This document shows, one piece after another, positions 9,601 through 39,850 of a DNA stretch of 64,000 bases (its first letter is position 1; each line of letters starts with the position of its first letter). Source of the DNA: Sarea resinae (lineage: Eukaryota). Where the stretch lies: positions 62,001 through 126,000 of the forward strand of contig JAPEUD010000020.1 in assembly GCA_026026165.1 (NCBI GenBank), given 5' to 3'. The position numbers and the translations under genes were made by a program. Below the pieces are notes generated by a model that searched no databases, had not been told where the DNA came from, and was given only the letters and a program-made list of their open reading frames with translations.

Positions 9601-10957
9601 ACCGCAGAGTTCTGGCCACCTCGGGCGGGATAGTTTACCTGCAGCTCCTCCCACTGATCAAGGCGTGATGGAGGAACTACATGGTACACCACCTATCCCT
9701 CCAGAAGGCTCGGAAATGGCTTCAAAGACAATATTTGATGCGCGACCAAGTCTCCTTCCGAGGCGATTTTCCTGGGAGGAGGCTTCGGAGGAGGAGCCAA
9801 CTCCCGCAGGGGAAGTAGGACCCCGCAATGAGACAGTCAATCAGCCCGAAAGTTCTGAGGTCTCGAGATCCAACTCCGACTTGAATCAGCTCGAAGGTAG
9901 TCAGCCTTGGCAGTCGGAAACATCACAACATCCCGCGGCTGGGGCACTGAAAGTCCAGAACGATGAAGACTTGGAGAGTCCTTACTTCGCACCCGTGCCA
10001 GTGGAGAATGTCGAGAAGCCGACCGTGCGAATCATCGGATCAGAAGAATCAGATTCACCCACTGCCCATCCCTTCCGTCCTCTCAGCTCCGAAGGACTTG
10101 AGGTTGCTGATGGTAGCGAGTGGGACATTAGTGGCCGGAACGGAAGCACTGTCAGCGCCGTATCGCCAGACACCCCCGAACTAGCAACACCCTCAGATGC
10201 CAAGCAGCAGAGCATTGAAGAGCTCCCCGCCACAGAGAGGACCACCAGCACGTCCAAAGAAGACCCCCTCGCCATTGCCGATCCAATTCCAGTCGCTCGC
10301 ACTACTTCCGCTGGGGCCTCTTCACGTCCCAAAACCTTGGGCTTCCGCGAAATCCTCGCCATGAAAAATTCCGATGACCGCATCGCTGCTTTCAATGCCA
10401 CGCGCGTCCAATTCGCGTCCATGGATACCGGTCTGTCAAATTGGCTCTCCGTCACCACCTCGGCGCTCCCGGAGCACGCCGATCTCCTCTCCACGGCAGG
10501 TCGTCCCACCGCCCCCATCGATGTAACGTCCATGGCGCATAAATCGACTCTGTCGAAGGCCATCTTCACTCGCTCGCACTCTAGTCGCGTCGCCCCGCAG
10601 CAGCCCTACTACCAGCAATACCTCAATTTCTCTACTACCAACACTAGCAAGCCGAATAACTCAGCGGGCGCCAGTTCCGCCGACGCTGGTGCGACTCCCT
10701 CTCCTGCCAGCGCCGCCCGCCGCACCTCGGGACTCTTCTCCTCGTCTCCCGCGTCGGCGCTGTCGCCGGGTAACTCGGGCGGCGGTATCGCGACTAGTAC
10801 GGGTACGGTCCGGGTTACGGGTGCGCACGTCCAGGCCAAGGGCAAGGATCTTCTGCATTCCGCGGGCTTGTTTGGGGGCAAGGCAAATACCGCTGCTAGG
10901 GGTTTCCTGTCAAAGGGAAAGCATAAGCTCAGGCCTAGTGGCGCCGGTGCCGAGTGA
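6653..10957 (+). CDS. Large, mostly disordered conserved fungal protein, Fyv8-like
   Basis: 1380-aa ORF 6815-10957 plus a probable short first exon from ATG 6653 (donor GTAAGT at ~6700). Conserved islands KRWVEAKSYSYDGDDWG, FVRPADIYKRM, GFRSVVHQAF, DRLRKEIVKSL and RIAAFNATR..FASMDTGLSNWL. The Fyv8 label rests on recalled motif resemblance. Confidence 0.75.
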
Positions 10958-16175: not shown

Positions 16176-17239
16176 GAGCTGCGATGTTTTGAACTTGGTC
16201 TGTCAGCTTGCTGCTCGGAAAATGCTTGTTCAGGGGTTGAATGCGGCCCCTCACGGAGAAGAATTGCGGCAAGCATCTAATCACTCACCATGCTCGTGCT
16301 GGGGCATAACTTGCCAGATGGCGCTGGCATGGCCAAAGCTCGTCAGATGTGGAGATGTCTCATGCAGCCAACGAGGAGCTTGAGGGATCCTCTTTCAGAA
16401 GTTGAGCGAGTCCTAATACCGCGAGACAGCAACCGCCAAGACATACGGCCTCTCCTTGTCTATGTTGGGCAATTTCTCTTGGGATTTAGCTGGAATTGAT
16501 CGACGAGCTTGCCATATAGGAAACCTTTACGATTCCAGCATTGACCTTGGGAATATGGGTTTTCAGTCTCCAGGGGCGGATGGTGGCTGGGTGACCTTGC
16601 CACTACAAAAGCAGGTGCCTATACCTTGTCGACGGGCAGAAGCTTTTTGAGGCAAGCTAGAGCCCTGCGAATGCTCATGCACAAAGTCGTCACTGCACAG
16701 AGAAGCTTCTGATCATGCTCAAGCGTCAGGCGATGCTTTGTGACGTGCTTTTTTGCACTTTCAAGAAAACCCGAGTCTTCAAGAGCTTCCTATGGGCACA
16801 ATAGACGTCACTTACTTCTTACACAGCTCCTACACTCACGTGGCTACACCGCCGGGAAAATCGGAACTTTCCGACGGTGAATCCCCCCCTGAGAAACACA
16901 TATCTGGACGTCACGGCAAGGCGTTGAGAGGACGCCGAAGCTCGGAACCAGTTTTATCCGAGCTAGGCAGCCACCTATCCTAGGGAATATCACACAGAGG
17001 CCCAAGGAGGGGAAAAGACGGCTTCTGCCGGCGGTGAATTCCTCAACTAACGTCCTCCTTATCGCCCACATTATGAAGCCCGTTGGAGCTCCACCGTGAA
17101 ACCCTTCTCCTTAGACTCTTCAAACAGGCAAAGACACATACTGGTGACATGCAGAAGCATGAACAGGCCTTGCGATAAGGCTCATCATTGGCCAAGGGCT
17201 GAAATGATTTGTGAAATACTGTGAATCCTCCCTCTTAAG

Positions 17240-17911
17240 CCGTCACAAGAGCTCTAGCGGCGCCGCAAAACGTGAATCTTCTCAACTCCAAAGGCAGAAA
17301 CGGTGACGCCCGCTCCGCTTTCACTTCACGGTGTCTTGAGCAGAGCATTATATAAGAAACCAGGCTGCCCGCTCTTCTTTCTCTTTCTTCTTCCCTCTTC
17401 CTACTCAGGCAGCCTCTTCTCTTTATATCTATTATCTTCAAGCTTTATATATCATGTCTTGCTATCTTTTCATCAGCATGCTTCTCGGTCTGGCCTTCGC
17501 CTCAAACTACTCTCACCAGTCGACCATGGGCTTGCTTCAAGTCTTCAACATGGATTCGACATCTCTCAACGGTAGTAAGTTAGAAAAGGTATGATCAAAG
17601 CAGTCATACACTGTGTCTCTTCCCTTTCTTATATCATCTTCAACACTCATAAGCTTGCTTCATGAAACCAGTATCACACTTGTTATTCTGTATTACATAT
17701 TCTATGTTACACTCTACAAGTCTGGTCAGCTCAGTCTATCTCTCACTGCTGTGTCTCATTCTTATAAATTACAGTTTTTCTAACCACGTCTATAGATACA
17801 AAGCCTACACCGCTGTCACGAAGACTCGAGTGCGACTGGAGTTTTAAGAACATTGGGAGAAAAGATTTGTGATATACTATAAAAGATTCAAGATATTAGA
17901 TACAAGTGACA
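17240..17911. mobile_element. Possible degenerate LTR remnant(s)
   Basis: TATATAAG followed by a pyrimidine tract; TpA-rich composition; TGTCAC(17814)...GTGACA(17911) inverted ends resembling LTR termini. No TSD or pol sequence seen. Confidence 0.3.
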
Positions 17912-17989
17912 TAAGAACATATATGGTTCGAAAGCTAGACGGATAGGTGAACAGGTGCTTTCTTTCTCCGGCCCAAATGGGCGCGACGA

Positions 17990-19610
17990 GCGCCTGGTGG
18001 CAATTATATGTGTCCTTGATTGTGAAAGATTTATCTTGCTATGCGTTGTCGAGAGAACTTGGTAATGTTTCGAACGCTTGAAACCCTATTCTGATCGCCG
18101 CGTCTTTCGCAAAGCTGGATACAGCCGCATAGAGTATGAGCAGGACATACTGTTTTGAGGAGTAATTCCATCATGACACGAGCGTGTTGGTGTCGGGCTT
18201 CTTCACCCCTTCAAAACTCTTCGATGTTGATTTCTAATGACCTAGTCTCGAGGTTCGGACACGTGACGAACTCAAGAAGTAGCCGGTGGCGGGTTGAGTG
18301 TCTGCAGCTATTGCTTTGCTTTCTCTGGAGCAAGAAAAATCCGGTAGACGTGGGTCATTCGGTGGATAGTTCATGATGTTGTTTCAAGAAACGCAGGTGT
18401 TTGTTCGGGCACCACTGAATTAGGCTAGAAGTCTTTCGATGTTTACTACTCGAGACGTATGTCCGATCGTTATATTTTCTTCGTTCTGCTTTTCTACTGC
18501 CGAATTTGCTGCTGAAAGTCCGACTAGTGCTCAAGATCGAATGTTGGTACCGAGCGCATCATCAAGACTGAACGAGGAGATGATTCCAGCTTCATTCATG
18601 CTGGTGTTGCAGAATTGGCTTTTTCCATTTGGACTGTTCAAGAGAGGCTCGTCGGAAAGAGGCATCTAAGCGTGATAGCAGTCATGCTCCGCAATGGAGC
18701 GAGCAGAGGAGACTCTGCAGCTGTGTGGCCCCATAGCTCCAGCAGGTAAATTCATTCCTATCCTCGTATCAGACCAACTCTGACATTAGCACAGCTAGGC
18801 AAGACACCTGGAATACAGCAAGTTCGTCTCTGTCCTTCTCTTCAAAGGCAGAAATCAACGATATCGTTAGTGGTAATGGCTTGGCCACAAATCCTTGCAT
18901 TCATGGCTCGAGCATCTAGACTTCCCATGCTGCGCGACGAAGGATTGTATCAATAGACCAAGTAATTGACCGCGGACGACTGAGTGTGGAGGACGAATTC
19001 TTCGCTTTCTTCTTCAGTGTTCCTGCTCTTACTCTGTCTCAGACCGTCGCGCTTGTCTTATCATGAGTCTTTGGCATACTCGCTCAAAATTAAAGCGAGT
19101 TAGTGAGATACAGGCTTAAGTATTCCGCGAGGAGAGTCTACTGAGTAATCGGAGCAAAAGCCAAAACTGGCCAACGTCGACGCGAGTCTCCAAAGAGACC
19201 AAAGAGGATACCCGAATGGCTTCAAGGCCAAGACGCAGTTGCTTGTTCTCGAACAGAACGTGATACTCTGGCAAGCGATGTCGATCAACGGGTAGTGCCA
19301 TCGCCGCGAGCTGTGTGCGCGCATTGTTTAGTCTTCTCTGCTGTGCTGTGGCTAATCTGCTCCATTCGCTAGTCACTCGAATGTCGGAAGCTCAGTGGAG
19401 CTTTGAGGGGTCTAGGCTTCACATTCTCTGAAGCCACAGGTTTCTGGTTCTGTGTGTGCTAGAGAATGTCGTTTCCTCCAGGCTCTTGCTTCGGAGCGGC
19501 TGGAGACAGAGACCAGCTCCGTCGAACACATGAGACTGGGGCTACCCTGACGAAAGAGAAGCATAGTCCACCTGACTAGTTTGATGTGGAAGCGGTCTTC
19601 TACACCCATG
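17990..19610 (-). pseudogene. Fragmented pseudogene of unknown protein
   Basis: Protein-like minus-strand pieces (SEWSRLATAQQRRLNNARTQL...FWLLLRLLSRL; ITWSIDTILRRAAWEV*; WNYSSKQYVLLILYAAVSSFAKDAAIRIGFQAFE) broken by stops. Confidence 0.4.
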
Positions 19611-20767
19611 CCAAGCTTGGAGCTGCTGATACCCAGGCCAGAGCTCGGTTCAATGCTCTTGTCTTCTGCCCGACTTTAGGATATTTTCAAGTAAGTTGCA
19701 ACTATCATCATAGCCTGACAATAACTGACAAGCCAAAAGAAAGCAGACATACCAGTCACACGACTGTAGATGCTTGCAGGACTATTACGGACCCTTGCAG
19801 GCATCATGGCTTCTTGCAGGCATCATGCTCTGCGGCGTCATTCAAGCCATTCGCCAATGTCACCGCTTCTGGTAAAGCATGGCAAGTAGCAGGATAATAC
19901 CAAGGCGATTTCGTACCCTCTATCTATTTCTTCGCTGGCTGATTGGCGGAAGATATCGGTCAGCATCGCTTTTTAGTACGTCTGGCTTCGGCAATCTTCA
20001 GAAAGGCTTCGTCCTTATAGAAGAGAGAAGAAAGCTCCTCTGGTCCTTTTCAAAGGTCATTTCGTTTAGCGGTCCGTGGAACAGAAGAGAGAAGAAAGCT
20101 CCTCTGATCCTTTCCACAAGCCATTTCGTTTATTGAACAATAGCTTTTCTGCTTGTCTGCACCGATCGATAGCGTTTGTTGCCATATTTCCTTCATTGTT
20201 GGCGCGCGTGCGCACGTTCGCAATCGCAACTCTTTCGCTGGATGGGGTGAGTTTGATATGCAGATTTGGGGCTTCTCTGGATCTTTCACCGCCATTTCGT
20301 TGCTTTGAAGTTCTTTCCTGTCTGTGTCTGGATTTTTGCAACCATGGTTTGCCTTCTTGCGGCCATTCATGTGGTCACGTGGCGCTCATGAGGCCAGTGG
20401 CACGAGGGCCTTTGTGTCGAAAGATGACCGTCTTTTAAACGCTCGATTACGCCACCGCCTTGGATGCCTTGAGGCAAGCAGCACGAGAGAGCGCATGCTC
20501 TGCTAATGCTATAAAGAGCAAAGGGTCGGAGAATCTTCGTCCGACTTTTCATTCCGTTGCTGACGCGAATACGACAAGAGAAGAGCAGCCGGCCATACTA
20601 CTCACCCAGCAATATCAAGACCAAGAAACCACATTTTGTCTTTCAAGTCGCGCGCGCGCTCCGACTTTTCTGGCTTCTACTGGTAGGACACTTCGTTGTT
20701 TCTTCTGTTTGCCTGACTGCACTTTGCGATGCAAATCAAGAAGGCGAGGCTCTTTCACAGGAGTTTC

Positions 20768-21068
20768 GTTCTTTTTCGCGGCAGATTGCAGAGACCGTAT
20801 TGAGTGGTCTCTTTAGCTTCGAGACTGGATAAGGTCATCATATTGACTGATATCTTTAGCTTCGAGACTCGACAAGATCATCATATTGACCGATATCTTT
20901 GACTTCGAGACTGGACAGGGTCATCATGTTGACCGATCTCTTCAGCTTCGAGACGGGGCAAGTTGACTATGTTCGGTGGTCTCTCTAGCTTCGGATCCGG
21001 ATAACGTGACTATGTTCAATGGCCTCTTCAACTGCGAGGCAGGTCAGCGAAACCATATTGAGTGGTCT
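20768..21068. repeat. 43-bp minisatellite, 7 diverged copies
   Basis: Units start at 20768, 20811, 20854, 20897, 20940, 20983 and 21026; consensus approx CTTTAGCTTCGAGACTGGACAAGGTCATCATATTGACCGATAT. Confidence 0.9.
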
Positions 21069-22710
21069 AACTCTGCATATTGCTAATCTGCATCCAATCG
21101 AGTGGAGCCATTCAACTGTCTCATTCGTGAGCAAACGGTAAGAGAGCCTTCATAAAAACAGAGAAGAGAAAGAAGATACGCGGCTGTCTCAAGTGCAGGA
21201 CTTATTCAGCTGCTTCGTCATGTTCTTCGATTATGAAATCCTGCGTTCGTTTGCTTCGAGGAAAAAGAACCGTAGAGCTGTTCTTTGTGGTATATCATGG
21301 AGTTCCAAATCACCAGACATGGGCTGAAAAAACCGGCGAGGGAAGCGGCCAAGTCGAGGGCGAGAACGAGGAAAGTCCAAGAGAGGATTCTAGGTCCTGC
21401 AAATAGTGTTGAATTTCAACAAGTGAGCTCAGTGCTGACAATCGAAATACACAGAACAGAAGAGCGGATGAAGCGGAAGAAGAACACGAAGAAGATGAGG
21501 AAGGAGGGAAAGAAGGGGACGACGGTGTAAGTGATACCTTAGCCCTATGAACCAATCCCTGGCTGTAATTGTTAACCAGTATATAGGACCGGTTCACCTG
21601 TGTCCAGCAGAGAAAGAAGATAAGAGACATTTAAGAAGAGGCCGTGCAGGACTTTCAAAGCCGAACCCGATATTCAATCCACGTAAGAGAAAGCATTCTG
21701 AAGTCCGGTCTAATTGTTTGAGAGTAGTTCTTTCTTAACTAACTTCGATACCGCAGTATCTTTTGCATAGGGTCTGACAGGTCGCCATACCATCTTGCAG
21801 CACCACAAGCAGCGCAACCAGTGAGCTAGGCTTGTATATATTATACTCATGCATGCAGGCATCGTTCGAGACAAGCCAGCAAGGTGCGATTTGAAAAGAG
21901 ACTTTCGAGCGAGCGTTTAGGAAGTCATCTTCTCGGGAGCAACGGGCATCGGCTGTAAGTCATACCCTACAATCCTACTATAACATCGCCTCGGAAACTT
22001 ACATATCCTCTCTGTTCAAGTCGCAAATGAGCCTTTGCATACCGCACCAGAGCTGCAACAGCGACCTGCCCGACCGGTCCGGAAATATATTCAGCCGTGT
22101 GAAGAGAGCGTCTCCGAGAAAGGCATCCATGGCCGGAGTTGAATTTATACCAAGCAACTTCCTCCGGTCTGTCATTCACGGAGGATTCACGGATTAATTC
22201 ACGGATATTCACGGCTCGAGTACAAGGTACTTCCAGGTTCCGATTGCGTATTTGTTCTTTTCGGTGGTACCTTCCAATCTCTAGATCCCGATCCCAATAT
22301 TCCGGCCGGAAAGGAGCCACGAAAGTCCGGAAGCCGGCTTGAAGCCCCTTGATGTCTGCTGGCAAGAGACAAAACGAGAATATGCTGGCTGTGGAAGCAA
22401 AAGTATGTCAGACTCGTAATATCTGCGTTACTAATATGAACGCTCTGCGATTCTGAGCTTGCCAGTGCAGAGGGAGAAGAAACGGATGTCGAATTTCGTC
22501 CTTTTAATCTTTTTCTTGACTCTAGGGAGGCCTTGCGCTTCTTCGAATTATCATTATATATCGAGGACTTTGCAACCCGGGGAAAGAAGAATGGAACGAG
22601 AAAGCTCGTCAATCTTTGGTTTTCCTTGCAGCCTCCAAGAATTCAAGCAGTAGAGTTCCGCAGAGCGAAAGCCGACGCTGATGTAGGCATCGCTAACAAT
22701 ATATCAAATA

Positions 22711-22980
22711 TTGCTAACATGAAAGGCTCCTGAAAAATCACACATTCATAGCAGAGCCGGTGTGCTTCATAGATGCAAGTCTTGACATTTGGTAAGCTCG
22801 TGAAATTCTGGTTCGTCATCGAATACGTTGCCCGGAGTGCTCTGAATTGCTAACATGAAAAGGTCCTCCTGGCATATAACGCACTCATAGCAGAGCCGGT
22901 CTGCTTTATAGATGCAAGTCTTCGCATTGTGCCAGCTCATGGTGTTCAGGTGTGTCATCGAATATTGCCCAGAGTGCTCT
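22711..22980. repeat. ~136-bp direct duplication (2 copies)
   Basis: TTGCTAACATGAAA...CATAGCAGAGCCGGT.TGCTT.ATAGATGCAAGTCTT...GTCATCGAATA...GAGTGCTCT starting at 22711 and 22847. Confidence 0.9.
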
Positions 22981-25900
22981 AAGCTGGGTAGATGACATGA
23001 GCATCGAGCTCGACTAGGAGAGCTTGCATTTACCGCACTGTCCTGTTTTCTGTATGCTGTCACATTGCGTGTAAATCATCCTTGGCTGACAATATCAACA
23101 GCTGCAACATCGCTTCTCCCAAGATAAAGAAAGCAGCGAGATTGAGTGTAGAGCTCATCGCCGTTATACTGGCCTTAGACCGTTCATGTGTCTCTCCCTA
23201 GCTGACATGACAGATAGAAGTATCGAGGCTGAGTATAGAGCTTTACTATTTCTCCCCAGCACAACTGGCGTCGGTTGTTTAACGCCGTCAAATTGTCTAT
23301 GCGTTCTTCTTAGGCAACATGATCAAGAAATATCCACTTCCTCTGGGTGGCGCGCTATCTAGAGGGATGCGGCTCGAGTCCGCCTGTCCGCAGCATGTGC
23401 GTGCGGTCTGTTGTGTCTCGCACTCCAGACCGTGGGAGCTGATGATTATATATTCGCATGGTGAGCTGCTAATGAGAGTTCTATCAGTGGACTGCATCTT
23501 CTTCTGTTTTCAGCCCTGCAGAACAACTAAATCACCAGGCCCATGCCACGTTTCTTAGCTTGAAAGTTTGTTTGAAGGCTCGTCTCGAGAGTTAATCTCT
23601 AGGACAACAGAGCACCTGATTGCTGATATTTTTAGTATTGATGGACGCCAAGAAAAGGGTTCTTTCCGATAGATCTTGAGCGCGAGAGAATAATGTTGGT
23701 TCCTGCAATAGGAACAAAATCCTTATGCGGGATGCGGAAGCAAACTTATCTTGACCGTAAGTGGTTTCGAAGCATTCCTTCATAGTATCTATCGGAGTGC
23801 CAATAAGCTTGTAATTCCTCATCCGGAGTGAGGAGAACGCTGGCTTATCTTCCTGGCATGGTATCTGCAGTCAGACGCATACTGGAGACATTGGTCTAAT
23901 GAGAGTGCGCAGCTGATAGCTAGGCTTTATTAACCATTCAGCTGCGACATCTTGTTCGAGGCCAAGTACAGTGCCATAAAGGTGCCAGGTCCAGCCTATC
24001 TTGCGCTTTGGACAAGCTATTCGATTCAATGGATCTGCTCGCTGCATCCTTCTGCCAGTTTTCTAGGAATACCTCGATCATACTAATACCGAGATGAAGA
24101 CTGATTTTGGTATGAAGGCGTAGCCTTTTCTGCTAGGCTCGTCTGATACGGAGCAATATAAAATAGAGAAGAGACACGGAATCATGGACTAAAAGGAAAC
24201 TAAATCCAATTAACATGAGAAAATGGAAAAACTTCGCAGCTGAGAGAGCTTACTTGTGCCCGCTCATTATGAGGTTTGCTGACAGACTTACAGATAGTCC
24301 CGACGTCTCAAAACTCAGACGTTCCTGGGCGAGTAACTTGTTACTATTTACTCGCCCAGGTGCGTGCGGTATCCAAGCTAAATGGCTATATCAGTGGCTC
24401 TGCTTGGTAGACGTGAGTAAGCTTTCCGGCAATTAGGAGCTCCCAAACCTCCTCGATGAGGAAGGGACAGCTTCTTAAAAGGGTCGATGATGACATTGAC
24501 ATGACGAGAAAGTTGGCGACCAATAAGTGTCTTGCCCAGAGCTCATGTCACCGAGCTAGCTTCGTCCTGTATGCAGCGGATGGAAAGCACAAGACTGGTA
24601 CATGCTCAGACTGAACAGGAACACAGCCCAGAAACTGATGGCAATTCGAGGAAGTAGTCCAAGACTAAAGAGACAAGGCCGTTGCGGGCTGTGAGCGCGG
24701 CTTTATGATTCTGACCAAGACTTATTCTTTGGATTCAGCCTATTGGCTCTGGCGATTTCGTATAGCGAATGCCCCTTTGAGTAAGGAAGAGTACGAGCTG
24801 GTAGAGAGGAGGGAGCGGGCGTGCCTTGCCTGGAATGATAGGACGGCGAGCGTGTCATAAGCAGACCATCCAACAGGGCCAATAACCTGTGGAGGTGTTG
24901 AGAGATGCTCTACAAGTAAGCTAATGGGTGCGAGGATGATCGAATTATATTGCAAATGAAGCGAAGAGTCTTGTCTGTGCGAACAGATTAAGCAGGACGA
25001 TGCTGTCGTTGGTTCCAGAACTGATTTATAGATACTTTCACTGCCTTCTTCAAGCTATCTTCTGCAAAGAGTGAGCATAGGAGATGACAAAGTTCGAATC
25101 GAGGGCGGCAAGACTGTCTGGCAGTCTTGCCTGCGTCCTTCTGCTGATAGATACGACGAGAATATCCGAGCAGCATTAATTGGCCGATGCAGAAAAAATG
25201 GCACTAAACGGATAGGAGGAACAAGTATAAGGAAAGAGCGAGTGTGAAGGTGGTCATTAAGGTGAGAGGTTCATTCAAATGGACCATCTCGCATGATGAC
25301 ATGAAGACAAATCTTTCGTTTCTTTTTGACCTGTTCGTCTCTACGGACGATCTTTTGGTCGTATACACATGGGAAAGATAATGATCCTAGCTTGAGGTTA
25401 TATGCTTTATACTCCTTGCTTACAAGAGATTTGAACAGCGACCGAGGCTACGGCCGACGCTCTGTTGATCAGACCATGTATGCTGGATTTATCTTGTTGA
25501 TGGTTATCTATATCTCGTTCAAGCTCTTCCTTTGATTCTCGTTGGAAGAAGAGTTCACGCCGATAAAAGCGGCTGTCAAGATGAGGTTGGGACATGGTGA
25601 GGACGTGGTCAGGAGACTCCATCGTCCATCCTTCGCACCTGGAAGTGTCTCCACATCTTCACTCATCTTCATCTCGGGAATCCTACTTATCGGAAAAGAA
25701 GATTCGTCTTCAGAAAGACTGCCGGCGTGTCAAAGACATTTGAGGTAATAAGTTGGCGGAGCATGGTGATAGGAGCATGGGAGGTTGAGAGGTTCAAGTT
25801 GGTAGGTATCCTGAAACTGGGCAGACTGCCACTTCACTCCTGACACTTCACTCAGCATAGGAGCATTCGAGGACTGGATTACATAATCACTCCTAGCACG

Positions 25901-27974
25901 GCAGGAATCCGGTAACGCAAGGTACCTGGCAATGGTATCAATGATAGGAGAGACGGTCGACGATGAATCTGCGTAAGTAAATGATTCGATGGGAGACAGA
26001 GACGTTCTCTGAGACGTCCAACGAAAAAGGTCAAACATTGCGGTACCGCCTTGTACTTCAGTACTTACCCCTTAGACGTCCGACGGAAATCGCCAGACTC
26101 TACCTGGTGGAAGTGGTGGAATGGTGAGACGTTCGATGAAAAACGCCTAAAATAGGGGAACTGGCAGCCATGGAAAATCTGAGACGTTCGACGAAAAAAA
26201 GTCAAAAACGATGATTGAAGGTCTAAAGATACAGGGACCAAATTCGAGAATCCAGCAGCATGAGGATCAAGGAATTTGTGTCTGTATAAACCGAGTCCTT
26301 GAAAGCTTGCTACAATTCTACACAGCCGCCTCAAATGGCGGGCTGCTGCCTCTGGCTCTATGGAAAAGGGGGTGACGATCCTAACGCTGTAAACCATTTC
26401 AGGAAGATTTCAATTGCAACGAGAGATTTGCATGATGACGCTCAAAGTCCAGACATCACTCCCTAGCTTCGTTTATCGAGCTATTAGAGCCGGAAAAGCC
26501 TCCGAAAAACAAGCTTTTGCTATCATGTTCTCTCTGCGCATGGCTAGATATGAGAAGAGTTTCTCGCCTTGAGACAACCATTGGCCAAACTTCGTATGCG
26601 ATTGCATGTCTAAGCATCAAGAGAGTATGGCATCAAGGAGGGCAAGCTTCAGCTTAACCGTTGCAGATCCGCAGAAGGGGAGCGCAGAAGACAGGTAAGA
26701 GCTCATCTGTGCCAACGAGAATATCGGGCCTTATCAGCTACGGTAATCAAAAGCTTTTTTTCCCTTGATTTCCATCCACGAAGAGATCGAATGCCCTTGG
26801 GCGTGCCGGAGGGATGTGCCCGTGGCATGAATGAGTGCTCAGTCAAAAGTAGAGCCAGAAAGACAACCGACCGAGCGAAAGTATCGCGAGGCTTTTGAGG
26901 GGGTTTTTTTCTAGAGTCGGAAAATAAGAGCATGGCTTGCACGATGAGAATATTTAGATCAGTGTTACCGACAGATAACAAGCTTCGTCTGCTTAACATT
27001 CCAAAGCAGTGACAGAGGATGCATATCTCCAAGATAAAATAGCAAGGATAACTACATCCTTAGCGAAGGGGACTCACACTCATTTTTTCCAGAATCAGGG
27101 GGTTCCCTCTTCAGCCGAAGCCAATGAGTGTCTACAGAGGACCATTGACAAGCCAGAGTCGACACTACATCAGCATACTGATGGGATATCGATCTGGGAA
27201 AGGTTACGCATTATGAAAAAGAAATCCTCATTATCAACATATAAAATACGAGGTCAGCGAACCATCCGCAGTGGTGCGACGAGTTCAGAGGAGTCAAGCT
27301 TGTTTTAATGGTAAGAGATAACAAGTGAGTCTGCGGGGGCGGCTTTAGGATCATATATATAGCGGCTGTTGTAGCTCGTCCGTCGTTGTGGGTATAATGA
27401 GCTTCAAAATCACCAGCATCCACCCGGTATAACGTCAAACAAGGCAGATTCTACAGAGACGACTCTAAGCGTGTAGGTAGTTGAGTTGGGCGATTCGGTC
27501 GCCTTGCCCCTGCCTCTGGGGAGCAAATCTTGCGGTGCAGTACGCCGCGGAATCCCGAGGAAGAGGAAGTAGCCGCGCAAGACAATTGCAGCTGCATGAA
27601 ACTTGTCGCTCCTCTGCTCTGCAATAGCATAGTAAGCTCCTCAAGCTAATTAGTCACGATCTGAACATGCTTTCGACAGGACAAGCTCGAATCTCGGGCC
27701 ATGACCGCAAGACGACTAAGCTGTCAGCGTGTAGGACAGAGGACGTTTGTCTACTCCTCGTTTTCTCTGCAGAAAACCGCGGAAGACTGAAGATTAGGCA
27801 CACGAGGACAAAGCCTCGGAGAACGACATACCGGCCCTAGATGTGGCCCGCTGAAGAGGTTAGATGCTGACGTAAAAGGGGGGCCACAGTCACCACGGAG
27901 CACATGATGACAAGCCTGCCTACAGCAGTGGCATGGCAATCATATCGTGATCCGTATTGCGTAAAAAGGTTATT

Positions 27975-29460
27975 ATCGTTACCGTGCAGACTTCAGGCCT
28001 AAGAGACCAGCTGACAATTTGGGACTATATCGGATAAAGGCAAAGGAAATCGCAGACACGTTTGATCCTAGTTATGCTGTGATCCAGAAGTGGCTCGGGC
28101 TCGACACGGACGACAACTGGACTGAAGAAGGATTAGTGGTTCTCCCAGACATCTTTGTTGGTTGGACAAGGCCGGACTACACGCGATCTTCCATGAAGAG
28201 TTTGCGATGTACGAACACCAGCGAAAAGTCAATGGAGCGGACACTCTTGGCTGGGTCCGCACCATGTTCCATTCCCATACGGAAGCTTGACAATTGCTAA
28301 TCTCTGATGATAGCCTGCCTTCATACCTCAAAAACATGTCTGAACAGGTTTTCTGCCCTTCTTTTTCGTCGTTTGTTTTTGGACATTCTGTATTGCATAC
28401 ATCTGGATTTGCTGCACGAACAATTCGGTCATCTCCTTTGATGTTGTCTGGCGGCTTCTTCTACCATTTGATCACGTGGGGTTTCTCACCTTCGTCTTAG
28501 CTGTCTGTCATGACTATCAGGCTTAGATATCTCGCCGTGTACTCAGCGAGCGTTGACGTCACTTCACCTAGTCCTCGACTCGTACGAAGCTACTGCCGTA
28601 CGGGGAGCGTCGGGTGTTTCTTCGTCCATGATGAAGATGGCCTGGTTTGTGCAAATCAAGACTCATACTAAAGTGCTGCCGTATGGGGACGGTCAATGTC
28701 GACAACGATTGGAAAAGATCCGATCGAGGACAGTCGCGACGAAACAATCGGTTTCATGCTCTTTGCTCTACAAAGAGCATCACTGCCGGTCTGCGTGATC
28801 TGACACATCAGAAGAACTTCCTGTCTATCTTGCTTTTTATCACAGAATCGCTGCAACTCAAGCAAGTTCGTTGAGCATCGCCTGAACACTGTGTAAGAAA
28901 GGTCTGGTGTCAAGCGGGGAGCTTTTCTTCTGCACGTCTCGCGGAAACAGGAGAAGTGGCTCGGTTCCAGCCTTGCTATCTTCTGGGAAACTTCAGAACG
29001 GAAAAGGCAGGACTCATGAGACTCAAGCGTAAAATTGCTGATCTTATCGCAACATCGATTGGACACCGAGGGGGTAACGGTAACAGAAGTCTGCTGTCGG
29101 CAACTGTTCTTTCCCACATCCCGCAAACAGGGCGCTGGTCCTCTGAGAAGCAGCGCGCTTCCAGCCCTGCTGTCTTCCAGAAGACCTTAGAGGAGAAGAT
29201 TGGGCTGATGACTATCGGCTTTCAGGACACAGAAGGTGATTAAATTGTCAAGTACAAGGAAGGTGACGAATACGTCAATCGCCTCGACAGACTGATGATA
29301 AATTCGAAGCTTGGAAGCCAAACTCAGCAGATAATCAGAATCCCTAGCACTGTCTGTTTGACTCTGCTGCAAGGAGACAACCAGCAAAGTATAGCAGACT
29401 TCCATCTCTTGCTTAGCAAGTCCATCTTCCGGGCGCTTGCAGATACCAGAAAATGAGCAG
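27975..29460 (+). pseudogene. Fragmented pseudogene(s) of unknown protein
   Basis: Protein-like pieces (GLYRIKAKEIADTFDPSYAVIQKWLGLD...GLVVLPDIFVGW; FQPCYLLGNFRTEKAGLMRLKRKIADLIA...FQDTEGD*IVKYKEGDEYVNRLDRLMIN...) continue across stops. Confidence 0.45.
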
Positions 29461-32424
29461 GACAATCGAAACTTCGGTGCTCGTCACGAGACCGAGAGCA
29501 ACGAAAGCCAGCAGCTGAGATGGCCATCGAAGTCGACCTCTATGCACGAGCCTGAGCGCGTCTCTCGAACTGTCGCGATGAGATTCATTCATTGATATAC
29601 GGGACGCCTAATATTGGGCGAGCATTTATCCTCTTTTTCTTCTTGTTCACCTCGAATGAGCCTCTGATGTGTCGCCTGCCAAAATTGCCAACTGAATATA
29701 GTCTGCCGCCATGAAGCTTGCGGCTTGCTATACTCGTGTCCTCGTACCGCCACATCATACTAAGACGCCGCCGAGGCGCCTTATAAGCTCTTCAGCATCG
29801 TCGTCTGCGGTCCAGAAGCTACTCAGGAAAGATGCTTTCCTTTCGATGGTCCTCACGAAACCATTTGGGACTTGGAACAGATGTGGTAAGCCAAAAGCCA
29901 AAGACGAAGCTCTACCTTCTCAAGAAAGATCAAGAGATTTTATCTCGAGAGACTCACATAGCCTAACAAGGATCCGGAAATGATGAAAAGAACGGTAGAA
30001 GATTGTTGGGATATTACACGGCAGTAAGTAGGATCATTGATACCGAGTTGCCTGACGTGTTTGGGAGTTGTGCGGTCGAGTAAGAAGAGATTAGATGGAG
30101 ACTGGGCGCAAAATAAGATAAGACAAGGAAGATACCTAGGTAGGTAATCAGAACGATCGCGATCTGGAAGTATCATGATAAGATCAATAACCTCGAAAAT
30201 ACCTTACCTGAGGTACCTAAGGTACCGTATCTTAGGTACCTTATCATGGTGATCAAGATGAGAGATCTAGATAAGATCAAACCAAAATCCGCGCCAAGCT
30301 CAACGAGCAGAGAAGAACGCAAATTCCAGCCCCTTTCCGGCAAAAGTCTCTCACAGCACGGCAAAAAGGGGGGTACGATAACCCTCAGACATCAATTTCA
30401 TCCTTGACTCGACGGCTTTTCTAATTAAGAGAATAACATCGAATTGCGACTATATACTATAGCAAATAAGGCAAGCAAAGTCCATACTACGGCACAATGC
30501 TTTTGCGGATACAAGTGTCGCGACGTCAAAAAAGGGGGTAAAACCATCAACGAAAACATCAGCAGCACTGAGAAAGTATAGAGGCACTTTCCTCGTGTAA
30601 CAATGCTCAGGTAGACACTTCAATCCGGGATCCCTGTGCTGGAGATGAGCCACTCCGACCGACTGGGGGTACCTAGACAGAGATTGCCAAGGTCTCCGTA
30701 TCAGGATGGGCAAAGCGGTCCCAGAGATCATTGAGAAAGCGGCCGCAGAGCCCAATACCAGAAACAGAAAAAGCGCCGAAAGCTACAACAAAGAACACAT
30801 GGAAAAATCCACAGCGGCACTTGCAGAGGGGCATTTCTAGTACTCTGAGCATCACGGAGACTTAACGAGGTAGAGTCCAAGGACCTCAAGAAGGAAAAGC
30901 AGCCACAAATGCTTCTTGCTCGTAATCTCTTGGTTCAGAGCTCAGGGCCTAGGTGTGGATACTACGATCTGTATCCCATACGCACACAAACAGCTCATTC
31001 CAAAAATCTGGCGCGTTGTGAGAGATTCAGCGGGACGTTGAACGCGGCTCGCGTTCCAAGGCAGGGCACGGGATGCAGGTAAATTTATCCATACGCTTCC
31101 ACGAGCTTTGCTGGCATGCTCAAGAGTTCCCACGCTCAGGCTTGTGAGTACAGGCTCTCGAACAGTCTCCACGAACATCAGAGCGGAGAGTGAAGAGGAC
31201 TACAATAGCGAGACCGTGATCTTTGTGCTCTATCTTCTAGAGGTGTAAAGCAAGCAAGGCACCACTCGAGATGAATTCCTAGAAAGAATTAGGCATTAAA
31301 GACAATCCAGACGCAGAAATGCACGATATGGTGCAGTCGTTCCGGATCGCTGCATGCTGTCTGGTAGAGGATGCTCGGGAGCCTAAAGTCTCGATCTAGC
31401 GCGTCCATCCGTGCCCGCAAGAGTCGAATAGTGCATCACGAGAAACACAGCCGCAAACTCTTCTTCTGAAGCTAAGGCATTCTTACCTGTCATTCACAAT
31501 CGCTCCTCTGGATCTCATGCTCCAGCAAGATCTGCCTCGATACGGATACTGTTCAAGCAGCCCCATCTGAGATCTGCTCGTATTCGAATTCGCTTCTTGT
31601 TTGGCGCACAGCGGCTTCCCTTGTTCCAGCCCGAGCCCTGACGTCTGCGAGTGTCTGCGATGCTGGTGCGATTAACGTTCAATGCATGGCTACGCTAAGG
31701 GACTTTAGGAACGTTCATCTCTTAGTTCTGAACGCGAATCTTCGAGCCCGAAAGAGGGACTACATGACATAGAGGCTTCCGGTGCAGCCGCCCTTCGAAT
31801 GTGGGCCTGGCGCCAGCCTCTGTGCATGAAGTTCATCCGCCGGTAGGGTCAACGTTCTGCTGGAAAGACATCAGCAGCAGCAGCAGCAGCAGCAGCCTTC
31901 ATGCTTTGCTCCAAGCCGAGCAGTGCTCATAGCACACGCTCTTCGGGCATTGCTAGGGTGCGCGCCTTTCTGGACGTAGAATGGGTCTGGCTGTGCTCGT
32001 GGGCTTCAGACATCGAACGTTGTTGTGGCTATGAAGCAAGCAACTCCCTCATGGCCTGTATGGTCGTGATCCCACACCCAAAACAGTCAGGAACCGATGA
32101 TTAGAGCCCAGACCATAGCCTTGTGGAGTGGGTACTGCTGGGAGACGAAGCAATCGGGCTCAAGGAGGCTTTAAATTCGTGGCTGGAACGAAGAGTGAAG
32201 GGAGCAGTAAAGGCTTCTCATAGTTGTCTGCGGCTACGCCGTGGGAGGACTATTACGCCGTTGAGTATACAATAACTGGCTGTCTTCGCAGCCAAGATAT
32301 TGATAACAAGGCAGGTTCCTGCTCACATGGTCTGAGCATCTTTCAACCCTTGGCACGAGAAAATTCAGCGTGTGGGGCTGAAATAATCGGGTCCCAAGAG
32401 GACTCGGGGAGTGAGATGAAGTGT

Positions 32425-32535
32425 GAGAAAGTCAGGACGCCAGGCGTAAGACGAAGCGTTAGAATGACAGGGCCTCCAGGCGTAAGACGAAGCGTGAGGA
32501 AGTCAGGACGCCAGGAGCGAAACGAAGCGTGAGGA
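32425..32535. repeat. 35-36-bp tandem repeat, 3 copies
   Basis: CAGGCGTAAGACGAAGCGT core at 32441 and 32477, with a diverged copy at 32512. Confidence 0.8.
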
Positions 32536-34479
32536 CGACAACACGGCTGAAAAAGGAAAAAGCGTCCGAATCGCACTCGCCAAGAAGAACCTGCTCGAGT
32601 TAAACGGAAGAAAAGAAGTCATGCCGCGAGAGGACGCCTAGGCTTGCAACTTCTAGCTCAAGGAACTAAGGCATCGGAACTCAATCAGGTCACAAGAGGA
32701 CTCTCGACCACTTCAGATCGTAGCAAAGTTGTGTGCTGTGGAAAATAGCATGCGGAGGAGTGTTCGAGTTACAGGAGACCTCGAAGGCTAAGAGGATGGC
32801 GATGAAGGAATAGATCAAGGTGAAGTGGAAAACGGGACAGTGATGGAGGACGAAGTGTGGAAGAGGAAGACGAAGAAGAAAGTGAGTGCACCTAGTACAG
32901 TCTTGCAACCAAAGGCAGTCTTCCGGGCGGAAAAGGAAGCAGAGCACAAAAGGAGCCGATTAAGCTACCCCTCCGAGTCAAAAGACCGCCCCGCATGTCT
33001 TCTGTCTTGCGAATTAACTCGGATTCCAGACTTCGATCACGAGATTGGAAAGCAGTGCAGAAACTCAGTGTTCCCCGATCAGGGGTTGGAAACTGATGTC
33101 GAAGAACTACGGCTGGGAAGAAAAGTATCCGAGTCCCAGGGGACAGGCCATTGAAGACCTTGATAATTTTCCCGGTCTTTATCTGCCGTGCTCAATCTCA
33201 GACTACCCCAAGGTCAGGAGCAGAGGACGCAGAGAGAACGTAGATCCGGGAACTCCCGCATGTGTTTTCTCTCTTGCTTGCCTATGAAGATCTCACAACA
33301 ATTGTTGCGCGAGCTTCTAAGTCATATTGATGGCTATCTCGTCTCGCGAAGGGAGGAGAAAAGAGTGTGAGATGAAGTGAGGCACGTCTCGTGAATGCAA
33401 ATTATACGCAGAGACTCTACAGCCTCCAACCTTTGGCGAGGGAAAACGGTCCCGGGCTGTCAGAAGTGCTTGCGTCGAAGGAAGAGCCTCGACTCTGCAC
33501 TCCACCTCTCCACGGCGAGCAAGCAAGAGCAGCGCCGGTGTCCTCTTCAAGCCATCGGCCTCAGGAACGAAAATAAAAAACCGTAATATATCCAGGGCAA
33601 AACACACCTATCCACTGGATCAAAACCATACTCGAAACCAAACAAATCAGCGCCTCGGTGCGCTCGTCGCACCACCAAGTCATTGAAAGACAATATCTGC
33701 CAACGAACCTAGGTGTATAATACTTGTGCCACATCTGACAGTCACATTCGACAGTATGCTCGATCAACTGCGACGCTGACGCTCGTCTGCTGAGTCGAGG
33801 ATGCATGGAACAGACCTACCGCGTCCGCACGCTGTCTGCCCAGCTAGAAACCGACAGCACGGCCGCAGCAGTCACCGACAGGCTCGGTGCTACTGCGAAA
33901 CCGATGCATGCATCTCTGCCTGTCTGCCTGCCTGCCTGCTTGTCTGCGAGCGAGCTCTGATACCTACCTACCTACCTAGTAGCATTCAGTAATGGTCATC
34001 CGTACAAATCAATGGTGCTCTATCAAGAATGATAGATTTAGAAATAACCCTCTCGCCGCAAAGACAACGACTTAGTCTTTTCTGTCCGGACGGAACGGAT
34101 CAAGACGCTAGAATCAGGCGGCTCTGTACCTGAATGTCTTACTTCTAAACGGTCAAACCCTGGACGAGAAATACCCCTGGATAGGGAAACGAGGAGAGGC
34201 ACTCAAAACTTGAGGCTGGTAGCGCGGAGGGTGGGGCTCCTGCCCTGATCCCTACTCATAGGGAAACCGGGGGTCGCAAAACAGATGAGAAGTCTAGTAT
34301 TACCTCGAGCACCGGGATTCTCAGCTCTAGGTTTTCGCTGGCCTAACTGTGGAATCAAATGGTTTCACCTAAGGGAACCATCTACATCGGCTCTATATGG
34401 AACGTCGGAATCTAATATGTACCCGAACAAACAAAAGCTCTTCTTAAAAGAGCCCTTCCTTTCAGTTTGGATGGTTTTG

Positions 34480-35640
34480 ATATTTATTTACCACCTACTG
34501 CGCTACTACCTTGGGTAGTAGTAAGAAATCATGCATTACTAGAAGACAGATAGCCTCCTTAATTCTAAGGCTGCCTTCTGTTATCTAGTCTGTAAGGTTG
34601 TAGAGGACATGTTATTTAGGTCTATTAGTAGAGAGTCTCTGCGTATGCAGTTATCAGCCCTAGATAGCATTTAAGAAGCTACAGAGAACTACATGACTTT
34701 ATATTTCGAAAGTCTACCTTTACTCTCTTCTAGTAAATCTATCTCTACAGATACAAGAGGCGCTACTATATAGGTAGTAGGGAAATCAGTACAACCTGAT
34801 TCTTCTACGCTGTATTAGTTGTTTAGCTTTAAATAGATACTACTTATCTCACCTAACACTAGCACTCTAAAGAAGCAACTAAATAGAAAAGATAGAAGAC
34901 AACTCTCTTTACCCTCTACAGCCTAGACCCTCTAGAGCTACCTCAGACGTCTAAAATTACAAGGACTAGTAAACAAATAAACTTGTTCCTATATAACACT
35001 ATCTAAAAAGAGACTACTATAACCTACCTAGCTTATCTAGTTTATTACCTACCTACCTATTTGCCTAGTAGGTACTATATAGCAGCGCACCTTAGAGATA
35101 TACACACTACATTTAGTAATCTACCTCTTCTACTTATATATCTGTAAAGAGAATATATTTGCCCTAAGAGTAGTCTTGTTTAAAGCTATTAGATATATTA
35201 CCTAACCTACCTATCTATCTTCTTACATAGAGAATAAGATCTACTAGCAATTCTGTTGATAGAAGGACTATACTTAAGCACTATATTTTCTAGAGAGAGA
35301 GAGAGAGAGAGGCCTGTTTATCTAAAGTAAGTATCTGCTATTATTATTATGATCATACCTCGCTGCTACAAACACTAGGTACTGTCTCCTATTTTTATAA
35401 AAGAAAGAAACAAGTGTCTTATATTAGCTACAGCCTAGCCTAGCCTAGCCTAGCCTATTGAAAATCAAATAGAAAGTAAGATAAGATAAGAGAAGGCAAG
35501 AGAAGTAGTAGCCTATAGATAACAAAAACAGAGCTAAACAAAACAGCGAATACATAGGAAGCTAGATATGTGATAGTAAAGCTAGTTCAAACAGCCTAGG
35601 TAGCTAGCCAAAGTCGCAAATATAAAAGTAATAGCCTTGG
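34480..35640. other. AT/TpA-rich, RIP-like mutated tract including (TAGCC)n and (AG)n
   Basis: Visible excess of TA/TAG/CTA and low GC compared with flanks; abrupt return to normal composition at ~35640. Confidence 0.75.
34501..34773 (+). pseudogene. Divergent histone H3-like gene inactivated by RIP-type mutation (histone-fold region)
   Basis: Frame from 34501 reads RYYLG***EIMHY*KTDSLLNSKAAFCYLVCKVVEDMLFRSISRESLRMQLSALDSI*EATENYMTLYFES...TRGATI*. It aligns with H3 [59 protein letters not shown].LFE...KRVTI. Two stops fall at conserved Gln positions. Confidence 0.8.
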
Positions 35641-35841
35641 AGATTTTCAATCCCGTGCTCTGTAGACTCTCTCCGCCGGAAGCAGGCATTCACTCTCTTC
35701 TTAATTCCTATCACTCGTTCAAATACTCAGCCACTGAACCGCATTCGTGTGCTGCTACCCACCACTCCCTGATGTACCACCGTGGAGCACCAAGCCACTT
35801 GATCCCGGTGTGTCTCCTAGCCCGTCGTTCGAGGAAGAGGA

Positions 35842-38038
35842 TCAAACCTTCTCAGGGTCGTTGATTCCTCCGTTCGTGATGACGTACGTGGCCTCCCTCT
35901 CTGGACAATCTGCATTTCGTCCGTAGACATGAGCCTCTTTTCCCTTCTGTATTTACTATCTCTGCCCGGGGTGGCCGGCGCGTTTGTAGTCACAGCATTT
36001 GCAGACAAACAGTTCGTAGGCAAAATCCAGACAGAACGTAGAGGGTATATAGACAAAACATTCGCATTCCAAAAGAACCCCTGAACACGACATAAACTCA
36101 CCAGGTGAATCCTGAATCTTGGCCACCCGCTCGTCGCCGCGTCCTTTGCGGAGGAGCACCCGAGTCGTCGAGGCGTGGGCGAGAATGTGGCCACCGACTG
36201 GTTTTCGGCCGTCAGCGCCAGCGAAGAGGGCGGATGCGCCCGGGTCGGACTGGACTTGGTTTGTCTGGTGGATGGGATGGTGAGTGGTGAAACAAGAGGT
36301 GAGGAAGCCAAAAGTTGAAATGCCTTTTGAGGGAGAGTGTGGAGAGGGGAGTGAAGAGTAGAGAAATCAAGGTACTGAGATTGAGATCTTTGGCAAGGAA
36401 AGAAGGGACGACGGAGTAGGGAACAGAGAAAAAGATTCACAAAAGGACATACCATCAGGACGCAAACATTGAACTCTTCGTGCAGGGAACGTCAGCTTCC
36501 GAATCGACCATAAGACTAGAGAGAATGAACAACAAAACATACCCTCAGCCATGTGCGCAAGCTTCGACAAGAATTGATTTAATTTCTGCTGGCGTTCGGC
36601 AAGCTCACCACGACCACTGAAATCAACTCGAAAGCAATTCATGATGCTGTCGATGATGAGGAGACGGTATTCATTGCTGGCGAATGACGCGGATAGGGTG
36701 TTGAGGAGTTCAAGTTGATGCTATATGATCAATTTTATCTGTGATTGACGATGTAAGCGTCGAGGGCTTACCTCGCTGTTAAGAGCACGAGCGTAGGCGA
36801 TGTTCTCTTGAGCTTGTTCGGGATCGACTAGAAGAGTCAATTGTTGCCATGGATAAAACAAAAGGTGAACGATACCTCCGAATCTTTCCGCAATTTGGGC
36901 AATCCTATGCTCGTCAATAAGATTCTCCAGGGAGACAAGGATACTACCTCTCCGGCCTGAAAGTTCCTTCAGTGTCTGCATTTTCTATCAGCAAGTACCT
37001 CCATTGATGGACATAGGAGCTCACCAATATACGCCGCCTTTCCCTCGGCGCCTCCCATTTCCTTCTGCCAGTCAGTAGCTATCAAGACTCTTGAGGCTAC
37101 TCCCACACCTTAGGCAGCTGAAAGATCAGCGAAGAAATTCGATGGCGCCGATGCTGCTTACCTGACAGATGACCGACATGGTATGAGATAATTGTGTCTT
37201 TCCGCAGCCTGGTGAAATTAGTCTCTGCTTTTTACAGCATCGCGTGACTGACGATATTCTCCATAGACCTTTGCGTGTCAGCGAATTTTCAAGTTTTGGA
37301 CAGGAAACATGCCTCGCTGATGCTCATGCTCTGAAAGCCGCTATTACAACGTCAGCATCATTCGCCAATTCACTCGCGATACCCACCCTCCTAAGACCGT
37401 ATCAAGTTGTTTGCTCCCCGTGGAAATTCTGACCACTTTCTTCCGCAGCTGCCCCAGCTCCTGCGCAGTCATGAAGCCGAAAGCAGATGGCTAAAAAGCA
37501 TCGGATTGTAAGGCATAGGTAAAAACGGCGGCAACAGAGATAGCAATAGCATCTCACGCCCCAGTGAAACTAACCAAACACTTCCCAACAGCCTCCTTGA
37601 CCTTCTCGACCTTGATCTCACTGAAGCCTTTAATCTTAAGCAGAGTCTTTCTCGTAGCAGCATGCACCGACTACCGTCCGACGACAGACAAGCAACAACG
37701 TCAGCCATCAACCCGATCCAGTTCAGTGACGCCAGCCCTGAGAGTGTAAGAGAACGAATAAGAAAAATATACCGCAACGGTATAATAGCCATTTGCTTTC
37801 AACTTGGTGATGTCCGCCACCCCGATGCCTGGATGGATGGGATCAGTATTGCTAGCATTTCACAGCCAGCCTCGAGAAGGCTATGCCAGAGTAGAAAGAT
37901 ACCGTGAGCTTGGATCGAGTCGATGTCGACGATAAAGGCATCCTATTTTGCAATGAGTCAGATGGTCAGTAACGTCCGGACGATGACGATGATGTGGCAT
38001 ACTTCATCATCGAACTCGTCGGCGATAGAAGCGGGCAT
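35842..38038 (-). CDS. DMC1: Meiotic recombinase Dmc1 (17 exons)
   Basis: Manual splicing gives an open frame: [44 protein letters not shown]...[38 protein letters not shown] (Walker A)...[12 protein letters not shown]...LLIIDSIM (Walker B)...[12 protein letters not shown]...NQVQSDPGA...[15 protein letters not shown]...[25 protein letters not shown]. Confidence 0.95.
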
Positions 38039-38814: not shown

Positions 38815-39850
38815 CTAAGCGACCGTGGCAGTAGGAGCCACGGGCTGAGCGGCAGCAGCCGGAGCAGCGACGGGGACAGGGGCGGCAGCCAGCGCGGCAC
38901 CAGCCTCACCGTTCGTCTCGGCCTCCGGGCAGTCACGAGAGATGTGACCAGCCTCACCGCAGCGGTAGCAGGTCTTGCCGGCAGTATTCAGCGGGCCTCC
39001 GTTGGGAGCAGTGCAGTCCCGAGAGATGTGTCCCTTTCGCACCATTAGTGTTACGTGCACGAGCGCCAAGGGAAATCAACGAACCAGCTTTCCGCAAGCG
39101 TAGCACTTCATGGCCTGAGCCTGGCAATCGCGGGCAAAATGGTTGGGACCGCCGCACTTGTAGCAAGTTGCGGGGCGAGGACCACCGGCAAATCCCCCAC
39201 GGAACCCACCAGCGAAACCTCCCCGAGGAACTGGTGCACCACGGCCAAGGCCGGGTTGCATGCCAGCGTTAGGGCATGAGCGCTATATCCCATCAGCTTC
39301 GTCGCTTTGCCTCTTCCTCCCTCGAAACGTACCGCGAGATGTCCAGGTTGCCCGCAAGAATAGCAGCGTCCGCTGGTGCCAGCGCCGCTGAGACGCAGGG
39401 TGGGACAGTCCGCTTGGACATGCCCTAGACCCTGGCAATGATAGCATTGCTTGGCTGAGTCACGGTGTCAGAACGTTATTGTAACCAAGAAGAATGCTGG
39501 AATGTGCGTACTCTCGGTGGTGCGAGGATGCGGGCAGCCGTTGGACTCATGTCCTGAATGGTGTGTTAGCCCTGTGGCCAGCTTGAGGCCATCGAGACCC
39601 CGAAGATGCGATGGTCCGCCTGAAACATACCAGGTTGCTTGCCTATGAGACGAATTAGCACGAACCCATCAACAAAGACGGAAGAGGAGCTTACAGTTAT
39701 AGCACAGACGCTCCGATGATGAGCAAACCTCTATGGCGAAGAGTCAGTCATCTCGAATGGCCCAGTTCGATCCCATTTCCATCGTCACATACCGGCATAA
39801 TGGCCGACGTTACCACACTTGTAACAAGCCCGACGCGATAGTGAAGACAT
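38815..39850 (-). CDS. GIS2: CCHC zinc-knuckle RNA-binding protein (Gis2/CNBP family), multi-exon
   Basis: MSSLSRRACYKCGNVGHYA..., repeated CX2CX4HX4C knuckles (CYKCGGPNHFARDC, CYACGKLGHISRDC, CYRCGEAGHISRDC) and an RGG-rich linker. Confidence 0.92.

Follow-up and report, generated by a model that had tools for sequence, protein, structure and literature searches.

Does the interval 34501-34773, where the open reading frame (ORF) track of the window lists no gene, conceal a histone gene, and if so, from which class of histone H3 did it descend and how was it lost? The window is the whole stretch of fungal DNA analysed here, 64 kb in length, and a preliminary description had proposed that this interval holds a divergent H3-like gene killed by mutation. 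We examined the reading frame, the composition of its surroundings, the sequence of its presumed parent and the sequencing contigs that resemble it.

A stop-riddled histone frame

All-frame translation of 34201-35100 revealed an H3-type histone fold in one frame of the forward strand (frame 34402+3k). The relic frame begins with R-Y-Y-L-G, followed by three stops and E-I-M-H-Y-stop-K-T-D-S-L-L. It continues in its middle part as L-V-C-K-V-V-E-D-M-L-F-R-S-I-S-R-E-S-L-R-M-Q-L-S-A-L-D-S-I-stop-E-A-T-E-N-Y and closes with F-E-S-L-P-L ahead of a terminal TAG. Six in-frame stops lie between 34516 and 34773, each of them TAG or TAA, so that no intact reading frame remains, and the two stops that fall within the H3 alignment both occupy H3 glutamine codons (Table 1). 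Over 91 codons the frame is free of frameshifts.

To place this similarity within the window, the whole 64 kb was searched by tblastn with a canonical H3 unit (taken from P0004). The relic matched at 34525-34722 with E=1.4e-4, the alignment comprising 23 identities over 66 positions and a 6-residue gap in loop 1. The runner-up had E=0.48, so that nothing else in the 64 kb counts as a match to H3. As a control, 400 dinucleotide-preserving shuffles of the AT-rich island that contains the relic were scored locally against H3. The island itself scored 72 at best, compared with a mean of 30.2 (sd 3.6) and a maximum of 47 for the shuffles, none of the 400 reaching 72. These results bear out the proposal of a stop-riddled H3-family gene hidden from the ORF track.

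Profile and sequence searches gave a divided answer. A phmmer search of PDB sequences with the relic returned 163 matches at E<=10, the best being 7d69_A (E=4e-4), and every one of the best 60 of these 163 matches was an H3 or Cse4 chain. The histone profile PF00125 scored 14.8 bits (E=0.036), which is under its gathering score of 26.4, so that the relic is missed by Pfam's own rule. Recognition as a histone, for which the preliminary description had looked to HMMER, is thus upheld by phmmer and falls short with the Pfam profile. A match to DUF6904 in the same frame was taken as chance, its E value being 0.01 and its 16 bits falling short of the cut-off of 27. When the read-through relic was compared by HMMER with 1.84 billion representative proteins, no close intact relative was found: the five matches at E<=1e-3 were two H3 concatemers (P0004 and P0006) and three repetitive junk sequences. 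Searches of a 5.8-billion word index with the relic, at near and at longer lengths, yielded 1 and 81 candidates, respectively, and none of these scored.

Table 1. Positions of the histone relic, its stops and its surroundings in the window
Feature	Position	Strand	Basis or remark
H3-like pseudogene core	34501..34773	+	alpha-N R-Y-R-P-G relic, alpha1, long loop 1, alpha2, weakly alignable C-terminal part
Putative N-terminal tail coding region	34417..34500	+	in-frame ATG at 34417; presumed coding
Three successive in-frame stops TAG TAG TAA	34516..34524	+	
In-frame TAG at H3 Gln of Y-Q-K	34540..34542	+	
Six extra loop-1 residues L-F-R-S-I-S	34612..34629	+	gap placement by BLAST and HMMER
In-frame TAA at H3 Gln of L-Q-E-A	34672..34674	+	
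RIP-mutated island, ~1.25 kb, presumed extent of duplicated segment	34405..35650	.	RIP indices and contig match edge
Remainder of island, presumably 3' flank of duplicated gene	34774..35650	.	RIP-like; (GA)n and (AGCCT)5 microsatellites
Rad51-family gene, two exon-like ORFs (context, not relic)	35956..36720	-	PF08423, E=7e-21 and 2e-21

The RIP island and the parent sequence

The relic forms the left fifth of an island with a strong RIP signature. In 200-base bins, the stretch from about 34400 to 35650 has a GC content of 0.30-0.40, a TpA/ApT ratio of 1.6-2.9 and a (CpA+TpG)/(ApC+GpT) ratio of 0.33-0.9, compared with 0.51, 0.73 and 1.23, respectively, for the window as a whole. The thresholds for RIP are a TpA/ApT ratio above 0.89 and a (CpA+TpG)/(ApC+GpT) ratio below 1.03, and 34401-35600 passes both as a bounded block. 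In 500-base bins, a strong composite RIP signal is seen at 34501-35500 and nowhere else in the window (GC 0.33-0.37, TpA/ApT 1.8-2.1, (CpA+TpG)/(ApC+GpT) 0.60). The RIP indices, named in the preliminary description as a check, thus agree with its reading of the mutations. On the left the island ends at 34405, where other contigs of the sequencing run described below cease to match, and on the right at about 35650, beyond which the RIP indices are at background level. In a six-frame Pfam scan of the island, no recognisable coding relic was found to the right of the histone frame. Like ordinary RIP relics of Pezizomycotina, this is a sharp AT-rich island with an excess of TpA, a depletion of CpA/TpG and stops of the TAG/TAA type, and its size is close to the minimum for unlinked duplications, which from work in Neurospora is about 1 kb for a duplication to be hit by RIP. 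It differs from them in its victim, which is a histone variant gene and not a transposon.

The island is intergenic and lies within gene-dense DNA, with the 3' end of the Rad51-family gene ~300 bp to its right; by eye, the residues of that gene look Dmc1-like. Elsewhere in the window, a TFIIH-TFB6-like ORF is 93% identical to a protein assigned to Sarea resinae through a metagenome-assembled genome (the next being from Xylona heveae, at 60%), and there are a Zn2Cys6 ORF and further fungal genes. A 1405-residue open frame at 6740-10957 (+) has no Pfam match at E<=0.001, and a CCHC zinc-knuckle ORF with two knuckles at 39108-39467 (-) is probably a Gis2-like host gene and not a retroelement Gag. 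The ~18 kb at 16200-34400 are unusually ORF-poor, with no stop-free frame of more than 172 residues, and have ordinary genes on either side; here GC is 0.45-0.53 and the RIP indices are normal. Three overlapping, purine-rich direct repeats of 70 nt, 64-79% alike, lie at 32400-32575.

If RIP had produced the relic, reversal of its changes should recover H3 residues preferentially. We scored 60 aligned core codons, of which 23 are identical to H3 and 37 are mismatched, against a permutation null in which the H3 residues were shuffled among the mismatch columns 5000 times. When T>C/A>G reversal was allowed at TpA sites only, six of the 37 regained the H3 residue, where 1.38 were expected and 3 of the 5000 permutations did as well. 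With T>C/A>G reversal permitted at every site, eight were regained (3.75 expected; 92 of 5000 permutations). Transitions in the opposite direction regained two (1.44 expected; 2214 of 5000), and the two transversion controls regained four and seven, which was not significant. At the level of single codons, TAG to CAG at 34540 regains Y-Q-K, TGT to CGT at 34591 together with AAG to GAG at 34594 regains LV-R-E, TTA to TCA at 34651 regains the Ser after LRMQ, and TAA to CAA at 34672 regains I-Q-EA. All of these had been named beforehand as C>T/G>A reversals, and their codons were confirmed. The codons CGC TAC TAC CTT GGG from 34501 can likewise be reverted to R-Y-R-P-G, the alpha-N motif.

Reversal does not, however, lead back to canonical H3. 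With C>T/G>A changes undone wherever this can be done, at most 31 of the 60 core residues were canonical and 29 still differed from H3. Because no more than 31 can be brought to the canonical residue, the parent was a divergent H3 variant, and the earlier view that the relic is not canonical H3 holds. At the Gln of P-F-Q-R-L-V the relic has TGT, which before RIP would have encoded Cys or Arg, and at the Phe of L-R-F-Q it has ATG, formerly Met, Val, Ala or Thr, so that neither the Gln nor the Phe can be recovered. L-R-M-Q thus stands in place of L-R-F-Q, as had been claimed, and no reversal gives Phe. The codon at H3 Thr107 is CTA (pre-RIP Leu or Pro); by eye, and in a weak alignment, the Thr118 position is TCT (Ser or Pro), with the Lys at 34735 corresponding to H3 Lys115. 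The relic is a RIP-inactivated pseudogene of a divergent H3 variant.

Related copies in sequencing contigs

One public sequencing run, X1, is listed as containing the region. Of the words sampled from 31-39 kb it has 99%, and the window itself probably came from this sample, which is not independent evidence. Contigs of this run were aligned on 32-38 kb at >=80% likeness, giving 19 contigs. Those of the locus itself show 0 differences from the window. Another contig matches 34597-34629, the loop-1 stretch of the relic, and its 30-base loose ends, translated by hand in the relic's frame, read Y-H-K-F-H-R-L-V-R-E before the match and G-K-S-L-H-M-Q-S-S-A behind it. This second copy, known from 93 bases only, has the same loop-1 length and the same Met, with His and Met at the positions of Gln69 and Phe85. 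Since they are common to the relic and the second copy, the Met and the +6 loop predate the duplication. The depth of the second copy is ~360, compared with 345-372 for single-copy sequence (rough values from bin depths), which makes it about single copy. Over 51 well-aligned flank bases, compared by eye, the relic and the second copy differ by 17 transitions, in both directions, and 3 transversions, and within the 93-base stretch RIP-type bases are about equal in number in the second copy and in the relic. The second copy may thus itself have been touched by RIP, and is perhaps another dead copy.

Two further X1 contigs match 34405-34440, up to and across the in-frame ATG at 34417, with a summed depth of ~3x single copy (a rough value from bin depths). 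To the left of 34405 both are unlike the window, so that the left end of the homology coincides with the edge of the RIP island. Throughout the alignment, the non-self X1 matches listed are ~33-135 bases long. Runs X2 and X3, from other organisms in the same study, gave tiny matches only, and no RNA sequencing run is listed as containing the region. The 64-kb window holds no second copy: a search for 60-mers common to the island and the remaining sequence, with purine/pyrimidine agreement at 53 or more of the 60 positions, found none. At least one related copy is present elsewhere in the genome. The claim that the gene was multicopy is thus supported, weakly, by the contigs and finds no counterpart within the window. 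Simple motifs of the (TACC)n type at 35042-35071 and 33961-33982 are matched by other X1 and X2 contigs; these recurrences were rejected as a repeat family, the sequence being of low complexity.

Parentage and origin of the relic

In the criteria of Malik and Henikoff (2003), quoted in PMC4359364, CenH3 proteins are recognised by an extended loop 1 and by lacking Gln69, Phe85 and Thr118. Aspergillus CenH3 has L-P-F-A-R at the Gln69 position and hence also lacks that Gln (PMC5307856). Loop 1 of the relic is 6 residues longer than that of canonical H3, the insertion being placed there by both BLAST and HMMER in accordance with the preliminary description, and neither Gln69 nor Phe85 is present. 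Fungal CenH3 usually has Trp where the relic has Met, and L-R-M-Q instead of L-R-W-Q is compatible with a CenH3. The likeness to CenH3 (CENP-A / Cse4 / hH3cen) extends to the H3 fold itself. The frame upstream of the core, 34417-34500, which may have been coding, carries no canonical H3 tail motif. The relic departs from a CenH3 in being dead, with six stops, in its Met, and in its C-terminal third, which aligns poorly to H3. Nor does phmmer rank Cse4 above H3 as the better match. Whereas the relic had been held not to be clearly CenH3, the loop-1, Gln69 and Phe85 diagnostics quoted in PMC4359364 point the other way, and its parent was most likely a CenH3-type gene.

Overall, we favour, with a probability of roughly 0.6, the reading that a CenH3-like gene was duplicated to an unlinked site in a fungus closely related to Sarea resinae, and that the relic is this duplicate, inactivated by RIP. 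A segment of ~1.25 kb carrying the CenH3-type gene would have been duplicated into an intergenic site downstream of the Rad51-family gene. During the sexual cycle, RIP would then have recognised the duplication and introduced C>T/G>A changes, mostly at CpA, the outcome being the six TAG/TAA stops, many residue changes and the AT-rich island. The copy at this locus is dead and makes no histone; at least one related long-loop copy elsewhere may be a working gene.

It is also conceivable, though unlikely, that the parent belonged to a lineage-specific, non-centromeric family of H3 variants with the long loop 1 and L-R-M-Q, distinct from true CenH3, which was duplicated and then subjected to RIP. 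The Met in place of the usual Trp, the existence of at least two copies and the lack of a close relative among the 1.84 billion representatives would all fit such a family, as would the phmmer E values for Cse4 (0.006-0.01) and H3 (0.0004-0.004), which show no preference for Cse4. Against this, the relic displays every one of the CenH3 fold diagnostics tested. We know of no extra H3 class of this kind described in Pezizomycotina, and a literature search found none in the passages it retrieved. In a bolder form of the idea, Sarea-like fungi would possess a small, undescribed family of H3 variants (+6 loop, L-R-M-Q) that has been copied repeatedly and of which at least one member might work beside or instead of CenH3; we regard this as similarly improbable. 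Retro-copying, or a mobile element that escaped recognition, might possibly account for the spread of such a family, and here it can be offered that the relic has no intron and that the homology begins 12 bases before the ATG.

The preliminary description had further suggested that the gene was carried by a mobile element. There is a precedent for this: hAT transposons captured canonical H3 as cDNA and multiplied it, so that six Mycosphaerellaceae genomes contain 135-784 copies, of which RIP killed all except the original (Dhillon et al. 2019, PMC6710886). Most of the hAT-borne copies are described as truncated to 71-100 residues and barely visible to the histone HMM, and many H3 copies in Pyrenophora tritici-repentis as remaining unmutated (PMC6710886). 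Both a mobile element with H3 and RIP-hidden H3 copies are therefore already known. That the present locus is a fragment of an element with a captured H3-like gene, like the hAT elements of Pseudocercospora, Cercospora, Sphaerulina and Pyrenophora, seems to us a little less probable still than a non-centromeric family. The published copies resemble the relic in being RIP-inactivated, truncated, invisible to the HMM and set in AT-rich blocks (PMC6710886), and here too there is more than one copy; the two contigs at 34405-34440 together reach roughly threefold single-copy depth.

The structure of the locus argues otherwise. A six-frame Pfam scan of 34300-35753, with stops read as X and E<=1, gave only weak matches in the H3 frame, so that the island contains no hAT or other Pfam domain apart from the weak and spurious DUF6904. 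No transition-tolerant 16-mers pair the island borders, either inverted or direct, and with neither a transposase domain nor terminal repeats the island cannot be assigned to hAT. Within 32-38 kb there are no tRNA genes and no Rfam families, and a tandem-repeat scan detected the (AGCCT)5 microsatellite only. As far as amplification is concerned, the alignment of 19 X1 contigs on 6 kb shows just a few short pieces of contigs from outside the locus at >=80% likeness, a limit at which older copies would escape detection, and the window contains no other copy. By their published description, the hAT-borne copies of Mycosphaerellaceae and Pyrenophora number in the hundreds and stem from canonical H3 cDNA, and the 9.5-kb elements around them have terminal inverted repeats and 8-bp target-site duplications (PMC6710886). 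Here, in contrast, there is one island of just 1.25 kb in gene-dense surroundings, with no transposon features and a parent that is CenH3-like. Furthermore, the TFIIH-TFB6-like ORF indicates a Sarea-like host, which is therefore not among the Dothideomycetes with hAT-borne H3 and lies outside the reported genera. The suggestion of a mobile carrier is thus not sustained, and nothing points to such an element.

That the host's canonical H3 gene was copied and the copy decayed through RIP and later drift is very improbable: although canonical H3 chains head the PDB matches and some Aspergillus species are described as having partial canonical H3 duplications (PMC5307856), this origin is opposed by the 29 of 60 core residues that RIP reversal does not restore, by the 91 codons without an indel, contrary to long neutral drift, and by the non-canonical Met and +6 loop of the second copy.

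If the parent was indeed CenH3-like, a centromere-type histone gene would have undergone duplication in a class of fungi that has received little study, with RIP removing the extra copy. Many duplications of CenH3 are on record from plants, flies, mosquitoes and nematodes, and a literature search retrieved no passage reporting a RIP-killed CenH3 copy in fungi. Copies of H3 killed by RIP are known from other fungi (PMC6710886), and in this respect the relic is a fresh example of a known process. RIP conceals genes from ORF and Pfam scans, and read-through alignment recovers them. Death by RIP is an ordinary fate of duplicated genes in such fungi, and the island left behind is likely to be a seed of heterochromatin beside a recombination gene of the Rad51 family.
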